Source of the DNA: a virus
Virus record (IMG/VR): IMGVR_UViG_3300046714_000360
Location: 1 to 64,000 of that record
Direction: 5' to 3' (one strand)
Length of the DNA stretch: 64,000 nucleotides
Positions 5,750-63,378 of this stretch are shown here, piece by piece. Positions within the stretch are counted from its first letter, which is position 1, and the number at the start of each line of letters is the position of its first letter. The position numbers and the translations under genes were made by a program. The notes below the pieces were generated by a model, which saw only the letters and a program-made list of their open reading frames with translations, was not told the origin of the DNA and did no database searches.

Positions 5750-5778
5750 TTGACAAACGTAGCCTAGACCTTACTATT
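5750..5778 (+). promoter_or_regulatory. sigma70-like promoter candidate (TTGACA, then TACTAT/TATTAT box)
   Basis: TTGACA 5750-5755; CCTTACTATTAT resembles the CCTATACTATTC box of the conserved cassettes; -10 register ambiguous. Confidence 0.35.
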
Positions 5779-5790
5779 ATAGTCAGTAAC

Positions 5791-5830
5791 CGCTTACCAA
5801 AAGAGCTTGCTATTTGGTAGGCGTTTTTGT
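5791..5830 (+). terminator. intrinsic terminator
   Basis: 11-bp stem CGCTTACCAAA/TTTGGTAGGCG (one G-U), 11-nt loop, then TTTTTGTGTG. Confidence 0.7.
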
Positions 5831-34905: not shown

Positions 34906-34982
34906 GGGTCATTAGCTCAGCTGGATAGAGCGTTTCACTACGAATGAAAAGGCCGGGGGTTCGAGTCCCTCATGGCCCACCA
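34906..34982 (+). tRNA. tRNA-Arg (anticodon ACG), CCA encoded
   Basis: Hand-folded cloverleaf: GGGTCAT/ATGGCCC acceptor, GCTC/GAGC D stem, TTTCA-CTACGAA-TGAAA, GGGGG-TTCGAGT-CCCTC. Confidence 0.9.
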
Positions 34983-42795: not shown

Positions 42796-44565
42796 TTGCC
42801 GATCACGTTAGTTCGTAAGAGTAAAAGCGCATACCGCGGGCCAGACCCTTACCAGGTAAAAGATCAGCTAGCAGGATTGCAGAATCTTTTACATGTGTGG
42901 GGGTCTGAGGCGTTCATGCGCTATTTCTTCTGGATCCTCCGCAAGCAGGAGAAACCAGATGCCAGTACTAAGGTTAAGGTCTCCCATGGTTGGAACAAAC
43001 GCCTAGTCCCATTCAGCTTAAATAAAATCCAGCGCGACATTAATGATCGTCTGCAAGAGCGCAACATCTGCTTGAAGGCTCGCCAAGTCGGTTATACAAC
43101 TTATTTTATTTTGCGTCGCCTTTGCCTGCCAGCGATCACCGAGCCTGGTGTAGGCTGCCTGCTTATCTCTCAAAACTCCGCATCTGTTGCTAAGCACTTT
43201 GATATCGTCAAGCGCACAGTTCGTTACATGGGTTGCCAAGATCCTTATGACCCAAAAGCTAACAAGGTGCACGATGAGCTGATGCAGCATCTTCTGCATA
43301 CGACCTATTCCAATAGACGAGAGATCATATTCGACCAGCTTGACTCTAGGATCATGACGGAGTCTGCTGAAGTAGAAGAGGCTGGCCAAGGTGTAACGTT
43401 GCACCACGTTGTCGCCTCTGAGGTTGCTCGCTGGGCTACCAGTCAGCAGTCTCGTTCTGGCGCACGCAGTTCAAAGCCAGAAGAAGTCCTAGCTAATGTG
43501 AAAGAGGCTATCGTGCTCGGCGGGACTCTCGATGAAGAGTCTACTGCTGATGGTATGGGTGGCTACTTCTATGAAGAGTGTATGCGCGCACGAGATGGAA
43601 GATCAGAGTTCAATTATTTCTTCCATGAATGGTGGTGGCATGAAGAGTATCGCTCGAAGATCGCTGCAGCACTTGACTCATTAGATGAGCGTGAGCAAGA
43701 GCTGCATGAGAAGATGGGTCTTGATCTATATCAGATCGGCTTCAGGCGTATCAAGCAGAAGTCACTCCGTCACAATTTTGAAGAGAAATATCCTGAAGAC
43801 GACATAACGTGTTTCCTGTTGTCAGGCAATGCGTTCTTTGATCGCGATATTATCGCTGCCAGATATAAAGAGGTCAGACTCGAGCCACCTATCGCTGAAC
43901 TGCGTAATGGTGAAGGTAAGATCTACATCAAACGTAAGAAGGGGCGTCGTTATCTAATCGGTGCTGACCCTGCAACAGGCAGGCAAGTTAACAGTGCTGA
44001 TACTGATTTCTGTGCAGCCGTTGTTATTGATATTGAGTCTGGAGAAGAGTGTGCCTCTTATAGAGCACGGTGTAGTCCTGAAGACTTCGCATATGATCTC
44101 GAGGAGCTCGGACGCACATACAACAATGCACTCATCTGTGTCGAACGTACAGGAGATGGTGGTACGTGTATCCTCACGCTACAGACACAGTGTCAGTATA
44201 CGAACATCTACAAGCACAAGGAGTGGTTCAAGAGGAACCGCGAGAAGCAGGTTGTAGAAGTTGATGGCTTCCCTACGTCCCCGAAGACGCGGCCTATCGC
44301 TCTGAACAAGCTGGCATGGTTCGTGCGGGAATATCCTGAGCTGCTTCATGACCAGACCTTCTTAGAAGAAGCGATGCGCTTCGTTCGCGACGAGAAAGGC
44401 AAACCAGCTGCAGCAGTAGGGAGCCACGATGATACCGTTTCAGCAAGATGGTGTGCGTATTATTGCAGAGAAGTAGTGCTCGGATATTTAGATCCTATGT
44501 CCTCCAAGAAACAGAAATATGGGGAAATTGAGGAGGATCTAGGGGAAGAAGTTGAGGCCGCTTAA
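42796..44565 (+). CDS. terL: terminase large subunit, 589 aa (TTG start)
   Basis: ARQVGYTTY ATPase motif region; LIGADPATG..DFCAAVVID and GSHDDTVSA nuclease motifs; AGGGAG SD. Confidence 0.85.
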   Translation: MPITLVRKSKSAYRGPDPYQVKDQLAGLQNLLHVWGSEAFMRYFFWILRKQEKPDASTKVKVSHGWNKRLVPFSLNKIQRDINDRLQERNICLKARQVGYTTYFILRRLCLPAITEPGVGCLLISQNSASVAKHFDIVKRTVRYMGCQDPYDPKANKVHDELMQHLLHTTYSNRREIIFDQLDSRIMTESAEVEEAGQGVTLHHVVASEVARWATSQQSRSGARSSKPEEVLANVKEAIVLGGTLDEESTADGMGGYFYEECMRARDGRSEFNYFFHEWWWHEEYRSKIAAALDSLDEREQELHEKMGLDLYQIGFRRIKQKSLRHNFEEKYPEDDITCFLLSGNAFFDRDIIAARYKEVRLEPPIAELRNGEGKIYIKRKKGRRYLIGADPATGRQVNSADTDFCAAVVIDIESGEECASYRARCSPEDFAYDLEELGRTYNNALICVERTGDGGTCILTLQTQCQYTNIYKHKEWFKRNREKQVVEVDGFPTSPKTRPIALNKLAWFVREYPELLHDQTFLEEAMRFVRDEKGKPAAAVGSHDDTVSARWCAYYCREVVLGYLDPMSSKKQKYGEIEEDLGEEVEAA

Positions 44566-44618: not shown

Positions 44619-44712
44619 TTGACTTGAGGACCGCGAAAACCTATACTATTCTTGGGTAGAGGGACTGTTCAAAAGAGGGTCGTCCAAACGGGCGGCCCTT
44701 TATCCTTTATAT
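44619..44712 (+). promoter_or_regulatory. conserved promoter-leader cassette, copy A
   Basis: TTGACT 44619-24, 17-nt spacer, TATACT 44642-47, ATTCTTGGGTAGAGGGACTG; 9-bp hairpin 44677-44698 then TTTATCCTTTATAT. Confidence 0.6.
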
Positions 44713-44758
44713 ACGTCGCTACATTCCCTGGCCCAATTTCTCCTATGAGGTGTTTCAA

Positions 44759-44977
44759 ATGGCTAAGACAAAATGTGAGATATGTTCTGTGTCTCTCAAG
44801 CGCGGCATGCGAGTCTGCTGCGAATGCAGCGAAGAGGTATGCGTCGTCGCTGACCGGTACAATCTTTCGTTCGCGGAAGGTGTTCAGAAAGTTCTCGACA
44901 TCCGAGAAACAAGTGCAATGGTTTCTCAAATGAATAGTGCCACCGTCCAGCGCCAGATTAAAAGAGGTGTGCGATGA
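44759..44977 (+). CDS. hypothetical zinc-ribbon protein, 72 aa
   Basis: GAGGTG SD; CEICS..CCECS. Confidence 0.55.
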   Translation: MAKTKCEICSVSLKRGMRVCCECSEEVCVVADRYNLSFAEGVQKVLDIRETSAMVSQMNSATVQRQIKRGVR

Positions 44978-48275: not shown

Positions 48276-48326
48276 AGTTCAGTCTGAGTACGTAACCCCC
48301 TTGCGTACTTAATACTGGAAGGCGTA

Positions 48327-48441
48327 GTGCTTGATTGCTGCGCCTGCTACTTTGGAGTGTGCCCAACAGTTTCATGTGGGAATGCCGGCGGTAGTCGGAA
48401 CACGTGCTTAGGGAACCAAAGTAGCAGGGACAGCAATCAGC
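48327..48441 (+). promoter_or_regulatory. 5' UTR long-range hairpin (repeat family with 49320-49349)
   Basis: TGATTGCTG-CG-CCTGCTACTTTGG (48332-55) pairs with CCAAAGTAGCAGG-GA-CAGCAATCA (48416-39): 9 + 13 bp around a 2x2 internal loop, 60-nt apical region. Confidence 0.5.
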
Positions 48442-48461
48442 TAGTCCACAAGGAGAAACAA

Positions 48462-49175
48462 ATGAAGACGATGTTTCGCTTAGGTGTAATTATGGCAGCG
48501 CTGTTTGTTGCCTTCAACATTGTGTTGCTTGGTTGTGGCGGTGGACCTGCAGGTCCAGGCAGCGGTGGTGGTGGAGGCACTCCTGGAAAGCCAGCAGCCT
48601 TCTTTTCGTTCAATCCATTGGGCCATCAAGGCGGCCTGCACCCGACAATTGCACATTCGAAAGTGGCGACTACTTATTCCATTCATCATGGTGAGTTGCT
48701 AGTAGAAGCTGCTACAAACTTCTCTGCCGCAGGGAGCTACAACGGCAATTGCGCAAAGATGCCGAATGTCACATTCCCAGGAATGTATATGAATGGCGCT
48801 GGCAGTCCTTTCGGGTCAAACGATTGTGCCGCCAATTTTACTAATAGTACAGCTGCAGGTATTTGCGATACAGTTGTAGGCGACGGTACTTTGCAGAATC
48901 TTATTATCACAGGCTCTGGTGGTGCCTTTAGCAATAGCGGGCACATCCAGGTCATCGTATTTGTTGCCCAGAAAGATGTTGGTGGCAACATTACTGGATT
49001 TGTCAAAACGACGACGCCATTGCAAGCTACTCTTGGTTTGAACCCACGGGTAGATGACGATGTCAATTCCTTTGCAGTGCACGACAAGGACACAGTGTGT
49101 ATGACCATCGATGCACTTAGTAGTGATTCACTTAACAATGTGAAAGCAATGGTGTTCAAAACTGTTGCTCCTTAG
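48462..49175 (+). CDS. lipoprotein, 237 aa
   Basis: AAGGAG SD; MKTMFRLGVIMAALFVAFNIVLLGC lipobox LLGC, then a Gly-rich linker. Confidence 0.7.
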   Translation: MKTMFRLGVIMAALFVAFNIVLLGCGGGPAGPGSGGGGGTPGKPAAFFSFNPLGHQGGLHPTIAHSKVATTYSIHHGELLVEAATNFSAAGSYNGNCAKMPNVTFPGMYMNGAGSPFGSNDCAANFTNSTAAGICDTVVGDGTLQNLIITGSGGAFSNSGHIQVIVFVAQKDVGGNITGFVKTTTPLQATLGLNPRVDDDVNSFAVHDKDTVCMTIDALSSDSLNNVKAMVFKTVAP

Positions 49176-49319
49176 GTCTTGCCTCTCGTAGTCGCTACAA
49201 CCAGATAATGCTGTTGAGCATATACGCGGGAGATCACAAGAGGCACAGATTACTGTGCCTGCTGCAATCAATCGTTCCAGCGACGCCTAGGAGACGTTGC
49301 GCCATCTTAGCCATAGGTG

Positions 49320-49349
49320 GTGCTTGATTGCAGCAGGGACAGTAATCGA
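49320..49349 (+). promoter_or_regulatory. short version of the 48327 5' UTR element, abutting the SD
   Basis: GTGCTTGATTGC + AGCAGGGACAGTAATCGA matches both ends of the 48327-48441 element; 8-bp hairpin with two G-U pairs. Confidence 0.4.
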
Positions 49350-49361
49350 AGGAGGAGATGT

Positions 49362-51808: not shown

Positions 51809-51829
51809 GCATATGGCGCGGTTGCCGCG

Positions 51830-51933
51830 CCTACTGTACTCGATATCCATATAGCCCTCTCCAGCTATGCTGTGCGTTTTTCCTACTGCTGACATACCGG
51901 TAGGTTTAAAAGCAGCCATTCGAGTACAGTAGG
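51830..51933 (+). repeat. 14-bp perfect inverted repeat in the 5' UTR of the 51947 gene
   Basis: CCTACTGTACTCGA 51830-43 and TCGAGTACAGTAGG 51920-33; the right arm abuts the SD GGGGAGG. Confidence 0.6.
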
Positions 51934-51946
51934 GGAGGCAACACGT

Positions 51947-53333: not shown

Positions 53334-53412
53334 TTGACTCCTGCGCCAAGAAAACCTATACTATTCATGGGTAGAGGGACTGTCCTAAATAGGGCCAGTC
53401 CCTTTATTACGT
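53334..53412 (+). promoter_or_regulatory. conserved promoter-leader cassette, copy B
   Basis: TTGACT 53334-39, 17-nt spacer, TATACT 53357-62, ATTCATGGGTAGAGGGACTG; hairpin GGGACTG/CAGTCCC 53376-53402, then TTTATTACGT. Confidence 0.6.
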
Positions 53413-53431
53413 TCTAAGACGAGGTTCACAA

Positions 53432-60744: not shown

Positions 60745-61647
60745 ATGAATCAAAAACCGTTATTCGCTCAGAACCAAGTGAGGTTAAGACGTGGCATTAC
60801 GAATACACCCATCCATTATAAGGTGCTGTCAGTTAATATGCTCCCCAAGCACCTTAAGGTTGAGCTTGGTGCCACGCTCATGAAGATCAGTACAGGTACA
60901 GAAGCCAAAGCACTTGCAGGACAACCGCCGGGTTGGGGCTATGAGGTACTTGATACCTTAGGCCGCATCGGTGTCTTGCGTATGCGTGGTGTTGACGTTG
61001 CTTTATTTTTCAAGCGTCAATGTCAAGAGGTAGCTGTTGAAGAATGTGATCCTGTTCCCGAAGGTGAGATACAAGACCCTATTGATGTTTGGGTTCGCCT
61101 AGACCTCATGGGTCAGTCAGCTCGCCAAGTCAATCAACGCATCAAGCAGCAGATCAACATCATGTCTGCAGACAATCAATTGAACAATACCCAGCTAGCT
61201 GCCAAAGAACAAATCATCACAGCACACGAAGCAGACATCAAGCGCCTTAAGAATCAGGTACAGGCGCTTGAGGATGAAGCAACGCGCAAGCGCACCGAGC
61301 CTGGTAAGCATCGTGAGATGGGTCAGCGTGATGTGATGGAAGGGTTTCTTGAGCTGCTAGCATCTATTCAGATGGGCGCAGACGATCCGCTCGTTAAAGA
61401 GCCGAAGCTATTTAAGATGCTCGACTCAATGGGCAAGAAAGTGATCGAGCAGTACCAAGGTGAAGTTGTTGCTCCTCATAAAGGCGAGGACTTTGATCCC
61501 AACGTTCATGAAGCTATTGCTCCAGATCCGTTCTACTCTGACGGTAAGATATCAGCTATCGGAGCTGTCGGTATCAAAATGCATGGCGTGCTCGTGCGCC
61601 CTGCTCGGGTAATAGTTGGCACCAGGAAAGACGAGGAGGCCAAGTGA
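60745..61647 (+). CDS. protein with GrpE-like C-terminal domain, 300 aa
   Basis: Coiled-coil region then GEDFDPNVHEAIAPDP..GAVGIKMHGVLVRPARVIVG, which parallels the GrpE C-terminus. Confidence 0.65.
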   Translation: MNQKPLFAQNQVRLRRGITNTPIHYKVLSVNMLPKHLKVELGATLMKISTGTEAKALAGQPPGWGYEVLDTLGRIGVLRMRGVDVALFFKRQCQEVAVEECDPVPEGEIQDPIDVWVRLDLMGQSARQVNQRIKQQINIMSADNQLNNTQLAAKEQIITAHEADIKRLKNQVQALEDEATRKRTEPGKHREMGQRDVMEGFLELLASIQMGADDPLVKEPKLFKMLDSMGKKVIEQYQGEVVAPHKGEDFDPNVHEAIAPDPFYSDGKISAIGAVGIKMHGVLVRPARVIVGTRKDEEAK

Positions 61648-61946: not shown

Positions 61947-62327
61947 ATGCAGATGAAGCAGAAGCAGAAGGCTCTTAACAAACGAGGACCTGCAGTGTAC
62001 GCAAACACAGTTCGGGTGATGGATAAAGATATTGCACGCCTGTCACCCGATCTTGTGATCGCCAACAGTTTTACAACAGGCATCGACACGAGAGGACCAG
62101 AAATTATTTTGATCCCTGCACAAGGAAGAACAGGCAACCTGAAGGTGTGGTTCAGTTCTCCGCGTTCCAAGAGCGGGCTGATCTCACTGACAGGTGCCTT
62201 TTCATATCTTGCCATCCCTAAGCATAAGCGCAAAGGGACGTACAAGGCGCACGTGCTCAAGTCAGGTGACAAAGCCTGTGTAGTGATCGAGCTCTGGCAT
62301 CGTAAACGCAGTCGCGTTCCTGTATAA
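61947..62327 (+). CDS. hypothetical basic protein, 126 aa
   Basis: ORF track; preferred over the antisense ORF 61877-62335; a 42-codon GTG ORF 61851-61979 may precede it. Confidence 0.5.
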   Translation: MQMKQKQKALNKRGPAVYANTVRVMDKDIARLSPDLVIANSFTTGIDTRGPEIILIPAQGRTGNLKVWFSSPRSKSGLISLTGAFSYLAIPKHKRKGTYKAHVLKSGDKACVVIELWHRKRSRVPV

Positions 62328-62385
62328 TTATTCAATCAAGTTTCCTCTAAAATGATGCATGCTGGAAGAAAGGAAGGAGGCTACC

Positions 62386-62466
62386 ATGGCAAGGCAGGCG
62401 CACGCTGTATTTCTCATAGCGTCTGACCTTCTACTGATCATATCTTCCCGTTACCGAGGGAAATAG
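62386..62466 (+). CDS. 26-aa hydrophobic micro-ORF candidate
   Basis: AAGGAGG 6 nt upstream of ATG62386; MARQAHAVFLIASDLLLIISSRYRGK. Confidence 0.25.
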   Translation: MARQAHAVFLIASDLLLIISSRYRGK

Positions 62467-62469
62467 TTA

Positions 62470-62498
62470 GGAGAGCGCTACAGCCGGTAGCGCTCTCC
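62470..62498. other. 12-bp perfect GC-rich hairpin without a T tract
   Basis: GGAGAGCGCTAC-AGCCG-GTAGCGCTCTCC, 11 nt upstream of the copy D -35 box. Confidence 0.6.
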
Positions 62499-62509
62499 AA
62501 CACTCTAGG

Positions 62510-62579
62510 TTGACAGCGTCACTCGCCGTCTTTATACTCTGTCTTGGGTAGGAGGACTGCCCACTAACTTTGTACCAAG
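62510..62579 (+). promoter_or_regulatory. conserved promoter-leader cassette, diverged copy D
   Basis: TTGACA 62510-15, 17-nt spacer, TATACT 62533-38, CTGTCTTGGGTAGGAGGACTGC; 7-bp bulged stem 62543-50/62573-79 next to the SD. Confidence 0.5.
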
Positions 62580-62590
62580 AAAGGAACACC

Positions 62591-62977
62591 ATGTCAGACA
62601 AGAAGAAGGACAAAAAGAAAGGCAAGAAGAAAAGGAATCGCGCTCAGGAAAAGTACAACAGCAAGATGCAGAAGTTCCACAAGAAGCACTACACACTGAT
62701 GGTGCAACATGTTGCTGCCCTTTCAGCCCACGCAGAACGCACAGTCGATTGGCTCTCACATGTTGAGGATCAAGTCCCAGAAGGGCCTACTGAGTTGTCT
62801 GAGATTCCGCAAGCGTTCGATCAGCTCAGTTCATTGGTGGCTTCCGCCAGTCAGACGCTGCAGGTTTGTACAGAAATTGTCGCCAGTTATTCCGAAGCAA
62901 ACAAGGTGGCCGACAAGGTCCACGACAAGGCGTTCGAAAAAGGCTCAAAACCTTTCACCAAAGGTTATCCAAAGTAA
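62591..62977 (+). CDS. hypothetical protein with poly-Lys N-terminus, 128 aa
   Basis: AAAGGAA SD before ATG62591; MSDKKKDKKKGKKKRNR. Confidence 0.6.
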   Translation: MSDKKKDKKKGKKKRNRAQEKYNSKMQKFHKKHYTLMVQHVAALSAHAERTVDWLSHVEDQVPEGPTELSEIPQAFDQLSSLVASASQTLQVCTEIVASYSEANKVADKVHDKAFEKGSKPFTKGYPK

Positions 62978-63003
62978 CCTGTTGCTGCAGCAGCCTAACA
63001 TCC

Positions 63004-63043
63004 AACGGGGGCGCCCGCATTTCCTCCTGCGCCCCGTTTCTTC
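63004..63043 (+). terminator. intrinsic terminator
   Basis: ~10-bp GC stem AACGGGG(G)CGC/GCGCCCCGTT with one bulged G, then TTTCTTCG. Confidence 0.6.
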
Positions 63044-63115
63044 GAGTTCCGAGTACCTGTAGTTCCAGCAGCCTCCCAAGTACCTTTCGCCTTTTATTCG
63101 CCCTTCCGATTTCTC

Positions 63116-63196
63116 TTGACTCACTCGTGCGAAAAACCTATACTATTCATGGGTAGAGGGACTGCTTAAAACAAGGGCAGTCCCTTATTTCACGTT
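63116..63196 (+). promoter_or_regulatory. conserved promoter-leader cassette, copy C
   Basis: TTGACT 63116-21, 17-nt spacer, TATACT 63139-44, ATTCATGGGTAGAGGGACTG; hairpin GGGACTGC/GCAGTCCC 63158-63184, then TTATTTCACGTT. Confidence 0.6.
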
Positions 63197-63207
63197 TGGA
63201 GGATGCT

Positions 63208-63378
63208 ATGTACAAGCAGGGTGATAAGGTCGAGTTTATAAGCGACAGGCCATCAGTCGCTTATTTGAAAGGCAAGCAAGGAGTTGTTTGCGCTGTTGTT
63301 GACTCTAAGAACATAGCCGTGCGGCTTACAGGTAAAACAGGTACTATCGTGCGTGCTGTAGATATCAAAAAAGTTTAG
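63208..63378 (+). CDS. KOW-like small protein, 56 aa
   Basis: GGAGGA SD before ATG63208; YKQGDKVEF..GKQGVVCAVV. Confidence 0.5.
   Translation: MYKQGDKVEFISDRPSVAYLKGKQGVVCAVVDSKNIAVRLTGKTGTIVRAVDIKKV

Follow-up and report, generated by a model that had tools for sequence, protein, structure and literature searches.

Promoter and leader-hairpin cassettes with a conserved block at the predicted transcript start recur in an uncultured phage lineage

The DNA analyzed here (the window) is a 64-kb stretch, positions 1 to 64,000 of IMG/VR virus record IMGVR_UViG_3300046714_000360, and represents about half of the ~125-kb genome of an uncultured phage. It contains exactly four copies (A, B, D, and C, in that order) of a cassette in which a sigma70-type promoter is followed by a conserved block at the predicted transcript start and, in A to C, by a hairpin with a T-rich tail (Table 1). 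All genes of the window lie on the plus strand. Copy A sits 54 nt past the stop codon (44565) of the terminase large-subunit (TerL) gene (42916 to 44565) and heads a series of small genes. Copy B is located downstream of a DNA ligase gene and a gene for a 60-aa protein, and copy D precedes the gene for a Lys-rich protein of 128 aa (62591 to 62977). Copy C heads an operon that begins with a 56-aa gene and a DUF87 ATPase gene and runs on into portal and head genes just past the window. An earlier note on this DNA had reported the four copies at the positions confirmed here and had assigned them to an early-like region, a description that is reasonable for A, B, and D but less so for C, whose operon reaches the portal and head genes. 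The phage is remote from cultured phages, with TerL identity to any of these not exceeding 28%, and megablast of 12 kb against 50,697 phage records returned 0 matches. The TerL of the window was also found on a metagenomic contig of 124,662 nt, and the contigs of relatives span 116 to 123 kb. Protein scans covered the ten largest open reading frames (ORFs; PHROGs) and the genes from ~11.5 to 64 kb (Pfam). Among the proteins scanned, no RNA polymerase, sigma factor, Q-like protein, or helix-turn-helix (HTH) or other DNA-binding regulator was recognized.

The order of elements is the same in all copies: TTGACN-N17-TATACT, a pyrimidine-rich discriminator of 6 to 7 nt, and the block GGGTAGRRGGACTG. 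In A, B, and C, TTGACT-N17-TATACT is followed by ATTC(T/A)TGGGTAGAGGGACTG, and these copies have in common the exact 26-mer TATACTATTC(T/A)TGGGTAGAGGGACTG. Copy D has TTGACA-N17-TATACT, a discriminator longer by 1 base, and the block variant GGGTAGGAGGACTG, which contains 2 mismatches. A scan of the window for the block retrieved three exact matches and one match with two mismatches (copy D); the one further match, at three mismatches, was at chance level. With 0 mismatches allowed, TTGAC-N18-TATACT matched the four sites and nothing else in 64 kb. The cassettes constitute the largest direct-repeat family of the window and 4 of the top 5 sigma70-like sites within 44 to 64 kb. A profile search (nhmmer, with a profile of all copies) found no fifth copy in the window, and a 9-mer census of all its intergenic regions found no other repeated regulatory motif. 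Chance is ruled out as the origin of the repeats because three exact 26-mers occur in 64 kb.

Table 1. Positions of the cassette elements and of a separate terminator-like hairpin in the window
Feature	Position (strand)	Description
Copy A promoter	44619..44647 (+)	-35 TTGACT 44619-44624, 17-nt spacer, -10 TATACT 44642-44647
Copy A block	44654..44667 (+)	GGGTAGAGGGACTG; predicted +1 at the first G, 7 nt past -10
Copy A leader hairpin and tail	44674..44713 (+)	Core GGGTCGTCC-AAAC-GGGCGGCCC 44677-44698, dG -16.2; extendable to 12 bp (44674-44701); T-rich tail TTTATCCTTTATATA 44699-44713; first gene starts at 44759
Copy B promoter	53334..53362 (+)	TTGACT-N17-TATACT
Copy B block	53369..53382 (+)	3' half, GGGACTG, forms the 5' hairpin arm
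Copy B hairpin	53376..53417 (+)	GGGACTGTCC-TAAATA-GGG(C)CAGTCCC 53376-53402, dG -15.7; extendable to ~17 bp with a bulge (53370-53408); T-rich tail TTTATTACGTTCTAA 53403-53417; start codon 53432
Copy D promoter	62510..62538 (+)	TTGACA-N17-TATACT
Copy D block variant	62546..62562 (+)	GGGTAGGAGGACTG, then CCC; possible 6-bp mini-hairpin GGGUAG/CUGCCC, dG -9.0
Separate hairpin	63008..63042 (+)	Terminator-like GGGGCGC...GCGCCCC, then GTTTCTT; between the copy-D gene and the copy-C promoter
Copy C promoter	63116..63144 (+)	TTGACT-N17-TATACT
Copy C block	63151..63164 (+)	Matches the invariant block
Copy C hairpin	63158..63199 (+)	GGGACTGCTT-AAAACAA-GGGCAGTCCC 63158-63184, dG -15.9; T-rich tail TTATTTCACGTTTGG 63185-63199; start codon 63208

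Identical copies were present in independent assemblies of the same phage (Logan contigs L003 and L004/L046). Two Logan contigs of this phage begin and end inside cassettes B and C and break exactly at a 30-mer that these two copies share; the cassettes thus account for breaks in short-read assemblies of this phage.

Relatives were reached through homologues of TerL and DUF87 and through contig look-ups, and ±10 kb was fetched around the terminase and DUF87 homologues (TerL identities of 84%, 82%, 65%, and 59%). Scans with the exact pattern TATACT-N5-6-TGGGTAGRRGGACTG gave no match in IMG/VR, GTDB genomes, and JGI metagenome contigs, collections in which this clade is not represented. In total, 12 distinct cassettes were found across four uncultured phage genomes of ~120 kb (TerL identity, 65 to 84%), and TTGACN-N17-TATACT is present in all 12. 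The sigma70-type promoters and the multi-promoter set proposed in the earlier note are therefore borne out, the latter as a set that is co-conserved in relatives. Across the related loci (~200 kb), every strict coding-strand TTGACN-N17-TANANT site was followed by GGGTAGRRGG(A/T)CTG at a fixed spacing, and a profile search of the ~200 kb of clade sequence retrieved no stand-alone block away from a promoter. Among the 12 copies, the information content per position was 1.85 bits for the -35 hexamer, 2.0 bits for the -10 hexamer, and 1.85 bits for the block, in which 11 of 14 columns are invariant. The corresponding values were 0.51 bits for the 17-nt spacer, with 0/17 columns invariant across genomes, and 0.63 bits for +15 to +28. 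Conservation thus reaches about 14 nt past the predicted start, in agreement with the earlier claim of conserved sequence within the transcript. The predicted +1 follows the -10 hexamer by 7 nt in most copies; in two copies a longer discriminator raises this distance to 8 nt. Because the block is as conserved as the -35 and -10 hexamers and is never found off promoters, purifying selection must act on it with the same strength as on the core hexamers, and it is tied to the start site.

Beyond these four genomes, the relative at 59% TerL identity (a fifth genome) contains TTGACC-N17-TATATT followed by a diverged block, GGGAAGAGGAACGG (11/14 identical), and then by the canonical terminator CCCTGGC-GAGA-GCCAGGG-T6. 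The block was not found in relatives at 43 to 56% TerL identity. One distant relative (L006) has a promoter family of its own, with a conserved spacer and no shared leader.

A GC-rich hairpin is predicted between about +8 and +48 in 11/12 copies, the exception being copy D of the window, for which folding of +1 to +62 gave no terminator-like hairpin. Over the same interval, the minimum free energy (MFE) z-scores were -2.0 to -4.2 in the 11 hairpin copies (-2.6 to -3.6 in A to C) and -0.95 in D, and the free energies (dG) of the 11 stem cores ranged from -12.6 to -18.3 kcal/mol. At least 5 T's occur within the 8 nt after the stem in all hairpins (11/11), compared to 2.65% of window positions. 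The d'Aubenton-Carafa terminator discriminant exceeded 0 in 7/11 hairpins, with values on par with or above those of other terminator-like hairpins of the window. In five copies the 5' hairpin arm is formed by the 3' half of the block (GGGACTG), and the remaining hairpin copies have an A-rich linker between the block and an unrelated hairpin. At least six unrelated stem sequences are found in the same architecture. The A-type stem, compared among three orthologous copies, displays double compensatory changes at 3/18 pairs with 0 broken. The B/C-type stem displays compensatory changes at 2/12 pairs, including the replacement of GGGACUG:CAGUCCC by GGUCUG:CAGACC. The sense strand folds more stably than its reverse complement in 11/12 copies, owing to G-U pairs. 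Taken together, the stability, the compensatory changes, and the sense-strand asymmetry argue for a real hairpin that acts as RNA and is built like an intrinsic terminator. The stem-loops and U-rich runs that the earlier note had seen in A to C are accordingly upheld, with some revision of their extent: the A hairpin had been given as 9 bp and the B stem as GGGACTG/CAGTCCC, and both are present but reach farther (Table 1). The U-tracts are mostly broken after 2 to 4 U's, and the loops measure 3 to 13 nt, with no conserved sequence. Rfam retrieved only tRNA from the whole window at the gathering threshold and nothing from 62300 to 63300 at an E value of ≤1. At A and B, no other terminator is present between the upstream gene and the promoter.

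The variable positions of the copies, defined as the 8 nt 5' of the -35 hexamer plus the spacer, were compared. Identity at these positions was 56 to 72% between paralogues in one genome and 32 to 48% between the positional counterparts B or C of different genomes. Certain spacer features are specific to a genome, such as GAAAACC in the genome of the window and ATTCTC in all three copies of a second genome. (The earlier note listed GAAAACC as a shared spacer end; this applies to A and B, while C has AAAAACC, and the feature is not conserved in relatives.) The first gene behind A, B, and C has no detectable homologue in the same slot of other genomes, whereas the gene before the cassette and the second gene after it are conserved between genomes. 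Further, one gene family occupies different slots: its member in the window is the second gene after cassette A, and a relative has a 47%-identical member as the second gene after cassette C. These comparisons are consistent with an exchange of sequence between copies within a genome and show that the gene directly downstream is replaced between genomes. In both respects, the cassettes behave like the "mobile regulatory cassettes" known as PeSLs (promoter-early stem-loops). An integron-like attI/attC interpretation was rejected, as the searches revealed no recombinase and the hairpin lies before the variable gene, not behind it.

Sequences resembling parts of the cassette were also observed elsewhere. 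A fifth promoter, the sigma70-like TTGACA-N16-TACTAT at 5750 to 5828 (+), is followed immediately by a hairpin (5791 to 5823; dG, -14.3) and TTTTT but has no GGGTAG block; because of this unit, the promoter-then-terminator layout is not confined to block-bearing cassettes. Just 5' of the copy-D promoter lies a perfect 12-bp GC-rich hairpin (62466 to 62501; GGAGAGCGCTAC-AGCCG-GTAGCGCTCTCC; dG of about -25) without a T-run. Two distant relatives, L007 and L012, carry GTTGGCA(C/G) 8 to 9 times per ~13 to 20 kb in intergenic regions of the coding strand. This motif, which is absent or rare in the clade of the window, may mark a different promoter class.

The conservation data indicate that the cassette is a real, selected regulatory unit. 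As for its function, we favor, with some confidence, the view that these are PeSL-like composite early promoter/terminator cassettes. By sequence, each promoter is a near-consensus site for a host housekeeping sigma factor of the sigma70 type (TTGACN-17-TATACT). Transcription is predicted to start at the first G of GGGTAGRRGGACTG, and every transcript would thus open with the same purine-rich 14 nt. This initial transcribed sequence (ITS) was probably selected for its part in initiation and escape at a very strong promoter. It reads AGAGGGA from +5 to +11 and contains no YG step before +13; purine content and GG or GA near +6 favor promoter escape, while YG steps hinder it (PMC5961368), and for this reason we read the purine-rich ITS as escape-favoring. 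In about half of the copies, the block would double as the 5' arm of the leader hairpin. The hairpin and U-rich tract (+8 to +48), with their terminator anatomy, would stop read-through from the upstream operon, a role suggested by the lack of any other terminator before the promoter at A and B. They would also partly attenuate the very strong promoter of the cassette itself, and transcripts that escape would keep a structured 5' leader.

Several observations weigh against the PeSL-like interpretation. Start sites and 3' ends are predictions from sequence. A hairpin past the start site would terminate the cassette's own transcripts, which the PeSL model neither requires nor explains. Copy C keeps its hairpin although a terminator-like hairpin (63008 to 63042) already precedes its promoter, copy D has no terminator-like hairpin, and 4/11 hairpins fall under the classical terminator threshold. 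The invariance of block positions T4, C12, T13, and G14 is more than purine richness for escape explains. The four copies in 64 kb compare with ~50 per genome for PeSLs, and a match between the block and the T7 A1 promoter, described below, may be due to chance. Finally, specific sequestration of the 5' end by several independent pairing solutions was considered and rejected, since the first 10 nt pair equally well when the downstream sequence is shuffled with its composition preserved.

The earlier note's suggestion of a 5' RNA stabilizer remains plausible. In its broader form, the hairpin would be mainly a 5' leader element that slows decay of the mRNA from its 5' end and acts jointly with the U-rich tract ahead of the Shine-Dalgarno (SD) sequence to tune translation, its resemblance to a terminator being incidental. 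We regard this as possible but somewhat unlikely. It would account for the U-rich tract that reaches the SD sequence in B- and C-type copies, and for the hairpin of copy C despite the terminator-like hairpin upstream. Copy D, moreover, keeps a 5'-terminal mini-hairpin without a terminator, and the T7 A1 and A2 early RNAs are also predicted to have 5' hairpins. MFE structures pair nt 1 to 6 in 8/12 copies, a count that depends on a predicted start site, and shuffled downstream sequence pairs the block equally well; the shuffle result for the first 10 nt likewise counts against 5' protection. The presence of ≥5 T's within 8 nt of a GC stem in 11/11 hairpins is a terminator signature that 5' protection does not need, and the A and B operons have no other terminator between them and the genes upstream. 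A pure 5'-stabilizer role leaves the universal T-rich tail unexplained.

Regulated promoter-proximal termination, as in the antitermination systems of Q, N/nut, and put, appears unlikely. Here, the hairpins would hold the operons off, and read-through at multiple promoters would depend on the element at +1 to +14, which (as DNA or nascent RNA) would either recruit a factor of phage or host origin or affect the polymerase in cis. The arrangement is suggestive in that a terminator-like hairpin lies directly behind a strong promoter in 11/12 copies, so transcripts from that promoter must cross it, and in that the invariant element is at a fixed promoter distance, is never promoter-free, and is conserved like the core hexamers. 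A long C-rich, G-poor untranslated stretch 5' of the portal gene, downstream of copy C, could add a Rho-dependent barrier. The interruption of most U-tracts after 2 to 4 U's, on the other hand, suggests partial termination. Copy D, the only one without a hairpin, precedes the gene for a Lys-rich protein, but the cassette of the homologous gene in a relative does carry a hairpin, and no obvious "master" gene is spared. No Q, N, other antiterminator, sigma factor, or RNA polymerase was recognized in the window, which is about half of the genome.

The known antitermination systems differ from the cassettes in their signals as well. Antitermination by lambda Q requires a -10-like element (AACGAT at +1 to +6), which induces sigma-dependent pausing at +16, as well as a promoter site to which Q binds (PMC4005639). 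The pR'-qut-tR' region of lambda resembles the cassettes in its strong sigma70 promoter, functional initial transcribed region, and promoter-proximal intrinsic terminator. However, an A at position 2 and a T at position 6 of the pause element are needed, and the sole candidate here, TAGRRG at +4 to +9, has an invariant G as its last base. No conserved promoter element resembling a Q-binding site was found (0/17 spacer columns invariant), and lambda has one such site before its late genes, compared to at least four before small early-type genes here. Neither Pfam nor PHROGs matched a Q-family protein among the scanned proteins of the window (the ten largest ORFs and the genes from ~11.5 to 64 kb; the window is about half of the ~125-kb genome). 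Features of nut and put are likewise missing, as the block is unlike boxA, no boxB-type loop is conserved (3 to 13 nt), and Rfam gave no match. Both the Q-type and put-type versions raised in the earlier note are thus unsupported by the features examined. What is left of this explanation is that the +1 to +14 element is the site of a novel factor, on DNA or nascent RNA, or acts in cis on the polymerase, so that polymerase reads through its own terminator in an antitermination or attenuation regulon distinct from Q, N/nut, and put; we consider this quite improbable.

It is similarly doubtful that the block is a DNA operator, with a phage or host protein bound to an asymmetric 14-bp site at +1 to +14 of every early promoter for joint shut-off or activation. 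Asymmetric operators have precedents in the C1 operators of P1 and the stoperators of Cluster A mycobacteriophages. A strictly conserved, asymmetric site in a single orientation, where a bound protein would block RNA polymerase, fits this model, and the separate promoter family of L006, with its conserved spacer, suggests clade-specific regulator sites. Against it, no stand-alone block occurs in ~200 kb, and no HTH or other DNA-binding protein was recognized among the scanned window proteins. In two copies the spacing between the -10 hexamer and the block differs by 1 bp while the block stays at the predicted +1, which fits a function at the transcript start at least equally well. In addition, the single block change within the hairpin arm is matched by a compensating change in the opposite arm of the RNA.

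Very unlikely, in our view, is that the cassettes are genes for short noncoding RNAs (about 40 to 55 nt) that end at the hairpin, with the downstream genes expressed from elsewhere. A promoter and a terminator within ~50 nt do amount to the anatomy of a small-RNA gene, but the RNA sequence beyond the 14-nt block is not conserved between copies, an SD sequence and start codon follow each cassette within 10 to 60 nt, no other promoter-like site precedes these operons, and Rfam provided no match. Leaderless micro-ORFs starting at (A/T)TG GGT AGR GGG ACT, another suggestion of the earlier note, can be dismissed with near certainty: ATG precedes GGT in B and C, but across the 12 copies the would-be start codon is ATG in 2, TTG in 8, CTG in 1, and TCG in 1. 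This codon overlaps the predicted +1, and the ORFs, of 6 (C), 16 (B), and 93 (A) codons, have no conserved stop or peptide past the block.

With respect to neighboring genes, the protein behind copy D has a Lys-rich, histone-H1-like N terminus. A homologue with 48% identity lies behind the D-type cassette of a relative (L045, 8579 to 9064), and a large-database search with the copy-D protein matched only itself. An N-like role for this protein was considered and is unsupported, as the cassette before the relative's homologue bears a hairpin. The untranslated region 5' of the portal gene is ~450 nt long (L046, 2370 to 2830, corresponding to ~65.5 to 66.0 kb in window coordinates; L045, 12390 to 12830), is C-rich and G-poor on the coding strand, and displays G-rich repeats such as (A/G)GGGGTA on the opposite strand. 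Possible roles for it are that of a Rho-dependent barrier separating the head genes from the copy-C operon and that of an iteron, origin, or packaging region. Minus-strand GGGGTAG repeats 5' of the portal gene in one relative were not accepted as additional blocks, since the phage of the window has no GGGTAG there.

Other features of the window are unrelated to the cassettes. Two intergenic regions of ~165 nt (48290 to 48455 and 49190 to 49355) flank a lipoprotein-like gene (48462 to 49175). Both have a near-perfect outer stem of ~26 bp (dG of about -64) with the common arms GCTTGATTGC.GC... and ...GCAGGGACAG.AATC, and may serve as processing sites of the RNase III type or delimit a mobile gene cassette. 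A long-range inverted repeat at 51815 to 51945, CCTACTGTACTCGA ... TCGAGTACAGTAGG, encloses the entire intergenic region 5' of gene 51947 (dG, -56.8). The peptide AGGPGSG(C)xGxxCGRP(A/P), which also forms a DNA repeat family, occurs in four otherwise different proteins (16693, 24480, 30881, and 32283, all +) and may be a maturation-cleavage or shared-domain motif of virion proteins. Auxiliary genes between 27876 and 44565 encode a C-methyltransferase, a GDP-mannose 4,6-dehydratase-like protein, GT2 and GT9 glycosyltransferases, an inorganic pyrophosphatase-like domain, and QueD (PTPS) and radical-SAM proteins, the last two of which may point to a 7-deazaguanine pathway. Cpn10-like and GrpE-like (60745 to 61647) co-chaperones also belong to the auxiliary set, and a tRNA-Arg(ACG) gene is located at 34906 to 34982.

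If the PeSL-like interpretation is correct, the idea of a mobile promoter/terminator cassette, so far confined to T4-type phages, would extend to an unrelated, uncultured lineage of ~125 kb, in which cassettes would likewise mark gene-swap slots. Standard sigma70 promoter models do not predict an ITS whose conservation among diverged genomes is as strict as that of the -35 and -10 hexamers. Were the block an escape-optimized ITS, it would represent a natural design rule for very strong promoters; were it a factor-binding site, it would define a new early-gene regulon.

Comparison with known systems places the cassettes at varying distances from several of them. Intrinsic (Rho-independent) terminators consist of a GC-rich stem and then a U-rich tract and usually occur at operon ends. 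The cassette hairpins agree in that a GC-rich stem is followed directly by a T-rich tract in 11/11 cases, termination itself being a prediction, and differ in their location 10 to 50 nt past a promoter. Stabilizing 5'-terminal stem-loops of the ompA type lie close to the mRNA 5' end, as the stem-loops do here, but do not require the U-tract.

The start-associated sequence (SAS) of Cluster K mycobacteriophages is a 13-bp sequence, GGGATAGGAGCCC, located 3 to 7 bp from the start codon (Pope et al. 2011, PMC3203893). Like the block, it is a short, asymmetric repeat in a single orientation in the non-structural half of a phage genome. Both contain a purine core resembling an SD sequence, with GGG...CCC at the ends (as in the D-type copy GGGTAGGAGGACTGCCC), and both are conserved before nonhomologous genes. 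SAS, however, occupies the ribosome-binding position, whereas the block coincides with the predicted transcript start, 45 to 105 nt 5' of the start codons, and the genes have SD sequences of their own.

The T7 A1 promoter (NC_001604, start at 498) shares TTGACT-17 bp-(G/T)ATACT with the cassettes, the T7 hexamer being GATACT, and has AGAGGGAC at +5 to +12, a register that agrees with that of the block provided that the first G is +1. In the predicted fold of its RNA, pairing begins at nt 2, and GGGA forms a 5' arm. In contrast to the cassettes, A1 is a single copy, A2 and A3 do not share its ITS, and no U-tract terminator follows. A scan of IMG/VR for TTGAC-N18-KATACT-N10-11-AGAGGGAC retrieved 15 loci from about 9 lineages, one of them T7-like, whereas shifted-register and permuted controls each retrieved 4 to 5 loci from 3 to 4 lineages. 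Given an excess of at most 2- to 3-fold over controls, AGAGGGAC at +5 to +12 is not established as a general ITS motif of phage early promoters, and the 8-mer match with T7 A1 may reflect chance or convergence. An unrelated viral contig of 193 kb in IMG/VR (L056, 2981 to 3794) carries two copies of TTGACA-N17-TATACT-aacagtgtca-AGAGGGAC with an SD sequence directly after, another repeated promoter with a conserved ITS.

The closest known analogue, which was absent from the readings offered in the earlier note, is the PeSL, a mobile cassette of T4-type phages (Arbiol et al. 2010, PMC2839356; Comeau et al. 2014, PMC4122927). In a PeSL, a strong sigma70 promoter is joined to a terminator stem-loop; these cassettes are found beside ORFans, recombine, and mediate modular shuffling, with mini-circles among their features (PMC2839356, PMC4122927). 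The cassettes described here similarly unite a near-consensus sigma70 promoter and a terminator-type stem-loop within ~100 bp, are present in several copies per genome with their sequence conserved between copies, are placed before ORFans or variable genes, and bear signs of exchange between copies and of gene shuffling between slots. They differ in the position of the stem-loop, which in the five PeSL subclasses is 5' of, within, or just before the start (PMC2839356) and hence outside the cassette's own transcript, whereas here it spans +8 to +48. An invariant ITS is found here and not in PeSLs, copy number is 4 in 64 kb compared to ~50 per genome, and the phage is not T4-like (TerL identity of <30% to any cultured phage). 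On the evidence of the sequences, the cassettes are thus best filed as elements that would work like PeSLs without being strict members of that group, with the stem-loop in the transcribed leader and an invariant ITS as an extra element.

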